DNA of 64,000 bases, from contig NC_043005.1 of assembly GCF_006345805.1 (NCBI RefSeq), positions 57,102,001 to 57,166,000 on the forward strand, given 5' to 3'. The position numbers and the translations under genes are program-made. The DNA comes from Octopus sinensis (taxonomy: Eukaryota). Below, in pieces: positions 9,739-64,000 of the stretch (positions are counted from its first letter, which is position 1; the number at the start of each line of letters is the position of its first letter). The notes beneath the pieces were generated by a model. The model did no database searches. It worked only from the letters and a program-made list of their open reading frames with translations, and was not told the DNA's origin.

Positions 9739-9741
<3 letters not shown>

Positions 9742-9961
9742 TTACTACCCACAAGGGGCTAAACACAGAGGGGACAAACAAGGACAAACGGATTAAGTCG
9801 ATTACATCGATCTCCAGTGCGTAACTGGTACTTAATTTATCGACCCCGAAAGGATGAAAGTCAAAGTCGACCTCGGCGGAATTTGAACCCAGAAAGTAAA
9901 GGCAGACGAAATACAGCTACGCATTTCGCCCGCGTGCTAACGTTTCTGCCAGCTCGCCGCC
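9739..9961 (-). mobile_element. Nin-domain-like SINE
   Basis: Reverse complement of the 5381-5610 family; flanking CACAACTAT repeats. Confidence 0.85.
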
Positions 9962-9969
9962 CGCACAAC

Positions 9970-10022
<53 letters not shown>

Positions 10023-10054
10023 ATATATATATAATATATATATATAATATATAT

Positions 10055-10115
<61 letters not shown>

Positions 10116-10303
10116 TATTATATATATATATAAACAAAGATAAATGCGATACAATAAAATTAATTATAATCGCCGGTGTACCAGTACACGCCATATATTA
10201 GACATATATCATTACATTCAAGGCGAAGAGGTGTACTAGATACACAATAGCTGGATAAATTTCGTGTGAGATGAGGTTTAAAAACTTTTACAAACTTAAC
10301 TTT

Positions 10304-10375
10304 TCTTATACTGCAGTTTCGCCAAATTCAGTAATAAAAAATAGTATTTATTACTCAGGCGGGCTCTCAGTAAGA
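10304..10375 (-). ncRNA. Hammerhead ribozyme copy A (core one nt short, CUGAGA)
   Basis: Minus strand: tctta CTGAGA gcc...ggc GAAA CTGCAGT A taaga. Confidence 0.65.
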
Positions 10376-10703
10376 TTCTGTTAATGATGGAAAGACCATA
10401 CCATAGATCCATGTGCGTCTATCGAAATGCTCTTTCTAAACTATTCAAAACACTGCGCAGACTCCGAACAAACCGACAAAATAGGGGATTGTGGTATATC
10501 GTCTAACGGTCAGAAATTTATCGAGAGAATATGTAAACAAGATAAATGCGATACAATAAAATTAATTATAATCGCCGGTGTACCAGTACACGCCATATAT
10601 TATACATATATCATTACATTCAAGGCGAAGAGTGTACTAGATACACAATAGCTGGATAAATTTCGTGAGATGAGGTTTAAAAAACTTTTACAAACTTAAC
10701 TTT

Positions 10704-10777
10704 TCTTATACTGCAGTTTCGCCAAAATTCAGTAATAAAAATAGTATTTATTTACTCAGGCTGGCTCTTCAGTAAGA
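10704..10777 (-). ncRNA. Hammerhead ribozyme copy B (intact core)
   Basis: Minus strand: tctta CTGAAGA GCCA..long hairpin..TGGC GAAA CTGCAGT A taaga; stem I 5 bp, stem III palindrome ACTGCAGT, GUA site. Confidence 0.9.
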
Positions 10778-10934
10778 TTCTGTTAATGATGGAAAGACCA
10801 TACCAATAGATCCATGTGCGTCTATCGAAATGCTCTTTCTAAACTATTCAAAACACTGCGCAGACTCCGAACAAACCCGACAAAATAGGGGATTGTGGTA
10901 TATCGTCTGTGGTATATATATATATATGTATATA

Positions 10935-11000
<66 letters not shown>

Positions 11001-11039
11001 TATATATATATACAAATATATATATATATTATATACACC

Positions 11040-14400
<3,361 letters not shown>

Positions 14401-15317: not shown

Positions 15318-15610
15318 CTACTTGACTGTATAATAGATTAACTGTTGTCCTTTTCTTCCATACTGATGACCTACAAGATGTAGAAACAGTCTGTCTGTAG
15401 ATGTAGGGTCACTACTTGATTGTATAAAAGAGTAACTATTGTCCTTTTCTTCTATACTGATGACCTACAAGATGTAGAAACAGTCTGTCTGTAGATGTAG
15501 GACAAATATTAAATAAGAAATGTATAAACAATATAACATTATTGTCTTTTTATTCCATACTGATAACCTATAAGATTCAGATATAGTCTGTCTATAGATG
15601 GAGGACAATT
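15318..15610 (+). ncRNA. Tandem hammerhead-like units (period 94 then 103 bp; third unit decayed)
   Basis: CTGATGA at 15363 and 15457; ttgtcct..tctata CTGATGA cc TACA aga TGTA GAAA CAgtcTGT C tgtaga..aggacaa; stem II junction non-canonical. Confidence 0.65.
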
Positions 15611-16227
15611 ATTAAATATGAAATGCATAAAAATATATATAACATGTTTAGTTACTTGCTTATAATAATTTTTGTAAATAGTTGTTTTAAAAAAGCATGG
15701 TGTCGGTGAAAAAAGCCTACGAAAAAGAAGAGAGGAAATGTCAATGAAAATGAGAAGGTGCAAAAGGAGTAGATGAAAAAGGAAGAACTAATCAAACTAC
15801 TTCCTGAGCAACATTGCTGCTAACCGCAACAGTGACACAGCTCAAAACAGCGTCTACGATCGCCACTTCATTGCGTCCATAACCACTAACTCCACCACAA
15901 ACTACAACAATGAGACAATGTAGAAGGCTTCTACATAACCCCTCGATATCAGAAATAGCGATTGAAGCTCCCTCAAATAACATCCCACTGTCTTAGAAAA
16001 GAACACGTTGGATAACGTTGGTGTTTTGGGGAAAATAATGCAGAATTTTCGGACTAGCAACTTCAAGCTCTGATATATCTGATTTCTTTCTTCTTCTCAG
16101 CACAAGTACATTCTGAAATTGCTTTTTATACTCTTCATTATATTTTTATCATTTATACTATATTTTTATACTTATAAATATTTTTATCACTTATACTGTA
16201 GGAACAGGGCCTGGATTTTTGTAGAGA

Positions 16228-20091: not shown

Positions 20092-20958
<867 letters not shown>

Positions 20959-53458: not shown

Positions 53459-53795
53459 ATGATATTACGTGCGCTATTTCGGTCGTCCTTCAATGATGAT
53501 GACCACAACAACAGTACCATTCCCAACGCCAGTAGTAGCCGCACCAAAACCATCGCCACCTCCAGTGACACCTACACTAACAGCACCAGTACCGACAGCA
53601 GCAGTAGTAGCTGCGTCAACACCAGCAGATTCAATATTGCCGACACCCGAACACGGAGATACATCGGATGCTCTGGTAACACATTCAAGCAACGCTTCTC
53701 CAACCACAGCTCTTCCTTCAGGATACCGGAAACGAGATACATTACGTCATTAACTAGCCATGTATAGCAACCGAAGGACGACTGCATTTAAAAGA
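53459..53795 (+). pseudogene. Penelope-type GIY-YIG endonuclease fragment with S/T/N-rich leader
   Basis: RYIGCSGNTFKQRFSNHSSSFR.....TSLTSHV*. Confidence 0.75.
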
Positions 53796-54047
53796 CTGCA
53801 AAAAAGAAGTGCTCAAATGAGACTGAGACAGAGATAAAAAGAAACATTGATAAGAGAACAAACATCATATTCGAATATATATTTTTTAATTGCATATATT
53901 TTTTACCTTCTGTGTTTTTTTTAAATATGTATTCTTTATATGTTAAAGGCCATGGTAATATTTATATATGATCAAATGTATTGTATCGTGGTGTTATATA
54001 AAGTCGTCGACTCAAATTTGATGTTTGTTCTCTTATCAATGTTTATA

Positions 54048-60849: not shown

Positions 60850-60907
<58 letters not shown>

Positions 60908-60908
<1 letters not shown>

Positions 60909-61650
60909 TAGCAGTACCGCCCGGCGTTGCTCGGGTTTGTAAGGGAAATAACTATAAAGCATTTTTAGAGAGTTATAGCCAAAAAATGGGGAAAAAATTA
61001 TGGTAAATTTTTTTAGTTAAAAAGGTCGAGTTGCGTCCCCTAGACAGTCTGTGGTTTGTGTTTCTAATTCTCGACCCCATGTCGAATTTATCGATTTTTT
61101 TCAGAACTGGGGGAACTTTTCAAAATTTTCGCTGCGTTAGTTTTGAATTATGACATTGGGCTATGTGTGTGTCAAGTTTCATCAGAATCGGTTGAAAGCC
61201 GTGGTCAGGGTGAGGGTACAACCTAACAGACACACAGAAACACACACAGACAAACTGCCGTTTATATATAGACTAGCAGTATCGCCCGGCGTTGCTCAGG
61301 TTTGTAAGGGAAATAACTATAAAGCATTTTTAGAGAGTTATAGCCAAAAAATTGCAAAAAAATGGAAAAAAATGATGGTAAATTTTTTTTTAGTTAAAAA
61401 AGGTGGAGTTGCGTCCCCTAGACAATTTGCGGTTTGTGTTTCTGATTCTCGACCCCATGTCGAATTTATCGATATTTTTCAGAACTGGGGGAACTTTTAA
61501 AAATTTTCGCTGCGTTTGTTTTGAATTATGACATTGGGCTATGTGTGTGTCAAGTTTCATCAGAATCGGTTGAAAGCCGTGGTCAGGGTGAGGGTACAAG
61601 CAAACAGACACACAGAAACACGCACAGACAAACTGCCGTTTATATATAGA
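60908..61650 (-). mobile_element. Head-to-tail dimer of a non-autonomous Helitron (60908-61272, 61273-61650)
   Basis: Minus strand: 5' TCTATATATAAA, 3' CCCGAGCAACGCCGGG hairpin + CTAG; junction CTAG|TC. Confidence 0.85.
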
Positions 61651-62118: not shown

Positions 62119-62187
<69 letters not shown>

Positions 62188-62394
62188 GTGAAATAGAAAG
62201 ATGAATAATCTTGTAGTAGATTAATCAAAAGTTTAACCGATACCTTAGTAGCAAAAATCACAGCAGTAAACAGCACGGTTGGAGGTACAACCATCTGGCG
62301 TTGCAACCGTGCGTTGGTGCGGATAATTGAAATTAAAACATTATTGGTGAATTGAAGAAATGGAGCTGAACGCAGATTGAACAGAAATCGTTTT

Positions 62395-62483
62395 ATTTCA
62401 TTCTACACGTGTTTCGAAAGGCACAAATTACCAAAATCCGATTGAATAATGGGACCATATTGTGTCTTTCTCTTCAGGAAGAA
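62395..62483 (-). ncRNA. Hammerhead ribozyme
   Basis: Minus strand: ttcttc CTGAAGA GAAAGaCACAA...TTGTGcCTTTC GAAA CACGTGT A gaatgaa; stem III palindrome ACACGTGT. Confidence 0.85.
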
Positions 62484-62803
62484 AAAAGGAAATCCGTTGG
62501 AAAAACAAAAACAGAACAGTGGCGGAGCAAAAACAAATCGAACTACGCTCCTAAGAGCCCATGGCGAAACTGTTTATCAGTGTATGTTGAGAACCGGTGG
62601 CTGAAGAATTCAACGGGTCAGGCATCGGTCAATCATGTGGGTGAGGGCGTATAGATGTTCTTAGTGACCGAGAATAAAGTTCTGACTATTTAAGGAATAT
62701 TGGATGTTTTATAAGGGGCGAAAAAAAACCTACTTAGAGACGTGTGTGTGTGTATACTGTTCTATATATGTGTGTGTTGGCGTAGGGGTAGAAAACATTT
62801 TTT

Positions 62804-64000
62804 GTGTACGTGTGTGCGTTTGATCGTTCGGCTGTCAGTGGCTACTGCCGAGAGAACCGTTGGGTGGCAGAAAGAAAAAAAAAAATATATATTATGTTTT
62901 ATGTGTGTGTGTGTTCATCTAAGCCTGCCTTGTCAAGGAAACCCCCCGCTGTGAAAAAACCAAGCCCCGTTTGTCTTACAGGAGTAATTCCCCTTGCAGT
63001 GGTTAATCGTAGATATCTTAAAGGCTATTTCAGAATTTGTTACCAAGGGCTATGGGTGCCGGTATTATTTATAAATAGGGGTGTTGTGGTTGACGGTAAC
63101 AATGGGAGTAGGGTAGTGAGCCCCAATAGCATCCCCAGCATCATTTCCCGCAATAGCAGCACCACGGGCAGTAGCAATGACAGCACTCTGATAGATAGTG
63201 GAGAATCAGGGGTTATTCCTATAGTTAATAGTGACGTAGTGGAAAATAGAGTAGTAAGCGGCTGCAGGTCTCGGAACGAATATAGTGACAGGAACGCAGT
63301 TCTAATTTCAGAAACTAATCCTAGCAGAATAAGATTCACGTCGGCGAACTCCAAGATCAAAAACGCCGTCTACCAATGCAAGGTTTACACGGACTCAGAT
63401 GTCTTCACTTATGTAGGGGCATCATCCTCAAGATTGTCTTTGCGTGTCTCCAACCATTACGCAACTTTTCGGGACATGAACAAGCGCCAGACCACGGGAC
63501 TCAGTAAGCTAATATGGCGACTGAAGGATACGAACTTAAGCTATAGGCTGGAATGGTCAATTTTGTCGGTGGCCCTCCCATTGATAGGGGCAGAAGACAG
63601 TGCAACCTTTGTGTCTCCGAACTCTTCCATATTTTGTTTGCCAGAGGCCGGATGGTAAACGGGCTCTTACAGTCGGCTCTTCGATGCCCCCATTGGCGGC
63701 GTTACACTTATCTGGCTTTTAAATAGCGTTTATAAATAATACCGGCACCCATAGCCCTTGGTAACAAATTCTGAAATAGCCTTTAAGATATCTACGATTA
63801 ACCACTGCAAGGGGAATTACTCCTGTAAGACAAACGGGGCTTGGTTTTTTCACAGCGGGGGGTTTCCTTGACAAGGCAGGCTTAGATGAACACACACACA
63901 CATAAAACATAATATATATATATTTTTTTCTTTCTGCCACCCAACGGTTCTCTCGGCAGTTGCCACTGACAGCCGAACGATCAAACGCACACACGTACAC
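62804..64000. repeat. Inverted repeat arms 62804-63075 / 63729-64000 (inverted pLTR-like; runs off the window)
   Basis: Near-identical 272-bp reverse complement, also visible as twin ORFs in the track. Confidence 0.92.
63076..63726 (+). pseudogene. Penelope-type GIY-YIG endonuclease, one frameshift near 63580
   Basis: NAVYQC..TYVGASSSRLSLRVSNHYATF..TGLSKLIWRLKD....EWSIL, then shifted frame RQCNLCVSELFHI...VN......RCPH, stop at 63724-63726. Confidence 0.85.

Follow-up and report, generated by a model that had tools for sequence, protein, structure and literature searches.

The window analysed here, a 64-kb stretch of DNA, carries at 10132-10908, in the minus-strand sense, 1.9 head-to-tail copies of a ~403-nt non-coding repeat set within a TA microsatellite. 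The features of this locus, and of one element at the far end of the window, are as follows.

9973-10131 (tract called to 10132), no strand: left (TA)n tract, adjoining the element's 3' end in the minus-strand sense and likely the insertion target
10132-10534, minus strand: full-length unit, 403 nt as assembled, made up of copy A and 30 nt that occur once
10304-10375, minus strand: type I hammerhead of copy A, predicted to cut after 10309
10309-10708, minus strand: stretch from one cut site to the other, a predicted monomer of 400 nt in the assembly and ~403-404 nt in the family
10505-10534, minus strand: 30-nt segment that occurs once, forming the first 30 nt of the full unit and comparable to the tail of Penelope-like tandems
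10535-10908, minus strand: copy B, the upstream, 5'-truncated unit of 374 nt, in the pseudo-LTR position
10704-10777, minus strand: type I hammerhead of copy B, predicted to cut after 10709, at a GUA triplet
10909-10917, no strand: 9-nt repeat of 10895-10903 at the 5' junction, running into the right TA tract and likely a template-switch or microhomology scar
10913-11035, no strand: right (TA)n tract
62182-64000: Penelope-like remnant with a GIY-YIG frame, an inverted repeat and a second hammerhead

A first-pass annotation had described the locus as a tandem of two near-identical units between (TA)n tracts. The near-identity and the setting hold, as a blastn comparison of 10132-10908 with the window shows the two copies to be 96-97% identical over ~380 columns, but copy B is ~30 nt short and the locus holds 1.9 units rather than two. 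The same comparison found no third copy of the unit in the 64-kb window, the next-best match (E 0.04) being a hairpin inside the unit. The register of the unit was fixed by the 3' end common to the family. It is the whole unit that is repeated, and there is no LTR. The longest stop-free frames in the unit span 47 codons in the sense and 70 in the antisense direction; no coding remnant is evident from the frames, and a comparison with 153 proteins gave one marginal match (E 0.006). The type I motif, a G+C content of 34%, the lack of a long frame and a length of 403-404 nt bear out its earlier description as a retrozyme-like non-coding unit.

A type I hammerhead descriptor was run over both strands of the 64 kb (128 kb of strands). 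In its strict form it returned one match, on the minus strand with the core starting at 10772, and none in any of 100 shuffles; in its loose form it returned 2 matches in the window against a shuffle mean of 0.03. The minus-strand hammerheads with cuts after 10709 and 10309 that had been proposed are thus supported. In copy B, helix I (10777-10773 with 10708-10704, 5 pairs) encloses the core box CUGAAGA (10772-10766), a helix II formed by a 45-nt AU-rich hairpin with 5 closing pairs (10765-10721), the bases GAAA (10720-10717) and a helix III that consists of a single G-C pair and an 8-nt palindrome (10717-10710). Helix I is the open helix, which makes the motif type I and not the type III of plant LTR retrozymes. 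Because helix II is 45 nt long, there is no room for the usual contact between loops 1 and 2. Copy B had been called canonical; this is true of its core bases but not of its helix III or its long helix II, and Rfam does not recognize it. At the gathering threshold, Rfam gave no match in the window, and at E<=10 it gave no hammerhead among 7 matches in 10100-10950 and none for either the 10772 motif or the second motif of the window (core 62477). In copy A, helix I is formed by 10375-10371 with 10308-10304 and the palindrome lies at 10317-10310. Its core box (10370-10365) is, as had been noted, one A short as assembled, the missing base falling at 10367. Helix II loses its fourth pair to a C that replaces A at 10361, and 3 closing pairs remain. 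A 22-nt ribozyme pattern had 0 exact matches in metagenome contigs and 0 in viral contigs, so that, at exact-match sensitivity, nothing points to a viroid or a virus as the origin.

The family was followed in four (X1, X8, X9 and X14) of 20 matching public sequencing runs, representing at most 4 samples from 4 studies, whose contigs were aligned to copy B plus the joining segment. At most 0.48 of the sampled words matched in any one of the matching runs. The unit is uncovered at 10750-10768 in X8 and at 10676-10783 in X14, and absence there carries no weight. There were no RNA runs among the matching runs listed; that X9 and X14 are RNA is no more than a guess, and neither was used for or against expression. 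The head-to-tail junction, 10908 to 10505, is present in contigs of all four runs (two contigs in X1, one each in X8, X9 and X14), with 25-129 letters on the short side. In each of the four the unit closes on itself after 404 nt, in contigs of 297-425 nt that are wholly or almost wholly unit sequence.

Run X1 yielded 221 aligned contigs, among them single 60-nt contigs at depths of 2,940 and 4,933; these depths, which are not copy numbers and have no single-copy baseline, point to a dispersed multi-copy repeat. Among the loose ends listed for this run (9 of 26), (TA)n is joined before 10535/10539 in 2 and 5 contigs (two rows), a position equivalent to 10132, the end seen at the locus. TA-rich ends also lie behind 10581, 10591 and 10857 (1, 1 and 2 contigs, again among the 9 of 26 listed), as would be expected of 5'-truncated copies. 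The junction has a depth of 83 in X1, far under the summed depths near the 3' end, and tandems may be a minority of the copies there, depths not being copy numbers. One X9 contig (depth 3.2) matches only the ribozyme, 10704-10780, with diverged flanks, a hint that the hammerhead may be the most conserved part among sister families. In a separate contig of X1, 762 nt long and at depth 88, the match is confined to 10760-10838, with ~680 further letters upstream; what this contig has in common with the unit is 80 nt, comprising the 5' half of the ribozyme and the bases upstream, and it is a candidate longer relative or autonomous partner.

On sequence-level features, the unit is filed with the animal non-LTR retrozymes, its RNA behaviour being predicted only. 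These elements, as presented by Cervera and de la Pena 2020 (PMC7229834) and by Li, Clavereau and Pollet 2026 (10.64898/2026.07.22.740005), are likewise non-coding tandem units of 150-450 bp with a G+C content below 50%, one type I hammerhead per unit and no LTR, and the 2026 preprint argues that they are non-autonomous Penelope derivatives. The mussel retrozyme family also lacks the usual loop-loop contact, and the helix III of the axolotl HHR_Amex1 is, as in our unit, one pair with a palindromic loop, in that case a tetraloop (PMC7229834). The unit differs from these retrozymes in its 45-nt AU-rich helix II hairpin and GUA triplet, in its insertion in (TA)n with a common 3' end and in having a copy A that is defective as assembled. 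In plant LTR retrozymes, by the account in PMC7229834, two hammerheads also flank a non-coding monomer, but those elements have a type III motif, LTRs, a primer-binding site, a polypurine tract and 4-bp duplications, none of which the unit has. Its type I motif and the repetition of the whole unit rule out a plant LTR retrozyme.

The layout of the locus carries a Penelope-like signature that the first-pass annotation missed, namely a common 3' end in (TA)n and a truncated copy joined to a full-length one. Penelope-like elements show frequent 5' truncation, partial tandems and a 30-40-bp tail (Craig et al. 2021, PMC8557442), and Neptune and Naiad elements have an insertion bias for (TA)n (PMC8557442). 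The partial tandem, the tail and the microsatellite target all have their counterparts here in the copies of 374 and 403 nt, in the 30-nt single segment, which lies within the unit, and in the common end in (TA)n. At the last bases of the 30-nt segment (10529-10534), 5 of 6 positions agree with (TA)n. The ribozymes are alike as well: Penelope pseudo-LTR hammerheads (PMC4209133, PMC8557442) and the unit have in common the CUGAAGA box, a 5-bp helix I, an enlarged helix II, a small palindromic helix III and a dimer-type design. The helix II of the unit exceeds those in the available rows of the Penelope hammerhead table (PMC4209133), and the unit is without the extra base that the Penelope min-HHR consensus has between core and helix II, as are the shrimp and acorn worm rows of that table. 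Unlike Penelope-like elements, the unit closes on itself after ~403 nt and has no RT or GIY-YIG frame, which rules out an autonomous Penelope element.

The window itself contains a Penelope-like remnant, at 62182-64000. Its GIY-YIG frame (63353-63723, plus strand, with a frameshift near 63590) matches the RT-zinc-finger-GIY-YIG protein P0109 at E 7e-15. Its closest relatives among named proteins come from Octopus sinensis (60-63% identity) and, in one case, from Argonauta hians; in the Argonauta protein, on a reading of motifs, we take an RT end, a cysteine linker and a GIY-YIG domain to stand in Penelope order. A word-based protein search with the GIY-YIG fragment recovered 0 of 78 candidates, and Pfam assigned the fragment to no family and gave one weak GIY-YIG match among 12 relatives; the Atlas score of 0.89 for GIY-YIG is a lead only. 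The region downstream of the frame forms an inverted repeat of 272 bp (62804-63075 and 63729-64000, 99% identical). Beyond this repeat, in the inverted 3' region of the remnant, sits another minus-strand type I hammerhead, with its core at 62477 and its cut after 62404, the only other descriptor match in the window. It is built like that of the unit, with CUGAAGA, a 55-nt helix II, an 8-nt palindrome and GUA, and from its cut site to the (TA)n at the end of the remnant's arm is 222 nt, as against 174 nt in the unit. These data suggest that the genome is that of an octopus and holds hammerhead-bearing, TA-ended Penelope elements. The remnant was rejected as the unit's own autonomous partner, as alignments of the unit with the two Penelope remnants of the window were no better than with shuffles (93 of 200 and 47 of 200 as high). 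A 22-nt likeness between the 3' part of the unit and 53967-53988 was likewise found to be chance by alignment against shuffles. The other, more decayed GIY-YIG remnant lies at 53504-53779 (plus strand; tblastn E 3e-6), with no hammerhead match nearby.

We consider the unit to be, with a probability of about 0.75, a non-autonomous passenger of Penelope-like retrotransposons, that is, an animal non-LTR retrozyme, with hammerheads that we predict to cut only when paired. A helix III of 1-2 pairs with a palindromic loop impedes cleavage of the monomer, while a double hammerhead forms when two such copies fold together (Cervera and de la Pena 2014, PMC4209133). In the proposed mechanism, a tandem copy would be transcribed on the minus strand and its two palindromic helix III strands would pair to form a double hammerhead, in which each core cuts the GUA site of the other copy. 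From the two sites we infer release of the monomer 10309-10708, which could then be circularised by a host ligase; circles have been proposed as templates of more-than-unit copies (PMC4209133). A Penelope-type GIY-YIG endonuclease would nick (TA)n, and the reverse transcriptase would prime on the (UA)n-like bases of the RNA at 10529-10534, 174 nt downstream of the cut. More than one unit would be copied, from a circle or an uncut multimer, so that a 5'-truncated copy comes to stand ahead of a full one. The template was not a single cut monomer, because the insertion holds both cut sites, intact, in its interior; it would have been either a circle copied round 1.9 times or a multimer left uncut, and the data are compatible with both. 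The first-pass annotation suggested a search of RNA-seq for the ligation junction, but re-ligation would yield the sequence already present in the genome, and such a search is therefore no test.

Folding predictions favour the double hammerhead. On the assembled 521-nt transcript, the double fold (-108.8 kcal/mol) gains 12.9 kcal/mol over a pair of single folds (-95.9 kcal/mol) and lies 3.8 kcal/mol from the free minimum (-112.6 kcal/mol), and the hammerhead is predicted to be a weak kind that requires a partner. The accessibility of the double fold would also suit a stronger claim, that this is an active retrozyme locus from which double cleavage releases a 400-nt RNA, linear and circular, in abundance. 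The size, G+C content and tandem type I motif fit the mussel (350-390 bp) and axolotl (330-350 bp) retrozymes, and HHR_Amex1, with its comparable helix III, cleaves well as a dimer (PMC7229834). This claim nevertheless appears unlikely. The core of copy A is defective as assembled and, because in the double fold each core cuts the site of the other copy, a dead core A would leave 10709 uncut, unless a second transcript or a weak single fold were to rescue it. The preprint calls active those elements that have two consecutive complete hammerheads, and the missing core base leaves the locus without them as assembled, a gap that is likely a consensus error given the intact family core in X1 and X9. 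The 45-nt helix II leaves no place for the loop 1-loop 2 contact, minimal motifs of the Penelope type are poor at cleavage even in dimeric form (PMC4209133) and, of nine predicted Xenopus dimers, one was cleaved in vitro and eight were not (10.64898/2026.07.22.740005). Moreover, retrozyme circles are described as "highly self-paired" (PMC7229834), whereas the circle of our unit is not strongly so: the circular monomer has a z of -1.4, with 6 of 60 shuffles as stable and a paired fraction of 0.60 equal to that of the shuffles (for the linear monomer, z -1.7, with 2 of 100 shuffles as stable).

The Penelope-like architecture throughout the locus might instead mean that the unit is a mere truncated terminal region, a pseudo-LTR, of an autonomous Penelope-like element and has no separate life as a short element. 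The ~680 letters that the 762-nt X1 contig carries upstream of its match are in keeping with this. Against it stand the self-closure of the unit after 404 nt in all four runs and the lack of a coding remnant within it, and we regard it as improbable.

Copies A and B differ by 2 substitutions and 9 gap openings, nearly all of them single bases in short runs. Measured along the unit, the period goes from 402 near its left end to 400 at the ribozyme and then to 404 at its right end, and a 425-nt contig of run X9 also gives 404. The spacing of "exactly 400" nt first reported between the cut sites is therefore correct as assembled (10709 - 10309) but has no meaning as an exact value, since single-base indels move the period between 400 and 404 along the unit. 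Public contigs agree with copy A at three indels, 10538 (4 runs), 10679 and 10724 (3 runs each), while the variants private to copy A, including the core deletion, have no contig row, the core being covered only by X1 and X9. In these two runs the hammerhead core is intact and, judged by their contigs, the deletion in copy A is not a family trait. The deviations are scattered over both copies, as expected of consensus errors. Most of the differences between A and B, likely including the missing core base, are probably errors of the assembly consensus, evidence that is at the level of the family and comes from samples other than the window's own.

Possible real decay of copy A at the locus would fit another history, in which a dead insertion was duplicated locally after arrival, by unequal crossover or slippage between TA tracts, and the hammerhead is a passive relic. 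Both copies also carry variants at 10664, 10675 and 10676 and lack a C at 10779, unlike the majority in X1, X8 and X9, which indicates one source. However, there is no TA tract between the copies, and the 30-nt joining segment with both its neighbours recurs in the four other runs, which duplication of a monomer at this locus would not produce; we judge this history highly improbable. That the duplication is an assembly artefact, a concern raised in the first-pass annotation, and one favoured by indel-rich homopolymer differences and phase breaks in the TA tracts that suggest a low-accuracy consensus, is scarcely credible, because the head-to-tail junction occurs in independent public contigs of four out of four runs.

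Several other repeats of the window were recorded. From the right TA tract onward, a LINE spans 11030-13600 (plus strand), its frames for endonuclease (PF14529) and RT (PF00078) being fragmented; it is treated as a separate insertion that has only the TA tract in common with the tandem. At 15327-15637 (plus strand), a 94-nt tandem of 3.1 copies contains a CUGAUGA box, a short hairpin and GAAAC; this hammerhead-like core fails the descriptor and is possibly a decayed or variant motif. A 378-nt dimer at 60898-61650, 92% identical between copies, adjoins (TA)n; it is older than the 10132-10908 tandem and has diverged mostly by substitutions (15, with 5 gap openings), and its start may resemble a non-autonomous Helitron-like repeat. 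Two 232-nt inserts, at 9739-9970 and 20539-20770, lie beside TA tracts, have mutually reverse complementary ends and are likely copies of one short dispersed repeat.

The locus in itself is ordinary, as tandem type I hammerhead repeats number in the thousands across many animal phyla and a connection with Penelope-like elements has already been argued. In the literature listings examined we found no cephalopod retrozyme family, although the supplements of PMC7229834 and of the bioRxiv preprint may list cephalopod motifs, and the available text of the Octopus vulgaris repeat annotation (PMC13282606) has 0 mentions of ribozyme, hammerhead or retrozyme. The locus extends the known animal retrozyme family to a probable octopus. 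It also lets the marks of Penelope insertion be seen on a retrozyme-type unit itself, beyond the vertebrates with which the 2026 preprint mostly deals. A bolder proposal, which we put forward tentatively and as a doubtful one, is that this is a recently active cephalopod retrozyme family with a 403-nt circle whose priming always takes place at a single (UA)n-like site, 174 nt from the cut, so that thousands of TA-embedded insertions would record rolling-circle reverse transcription by a Penelope-type enzyme. If the circle reading is true, the family would provide a natural data set for whether the tandems and tails of Penelope elements arise from circular templates, and would add a hammerhead with a long helix II, working only as a dimer, that is common to autonomous and non-autonomous partners.
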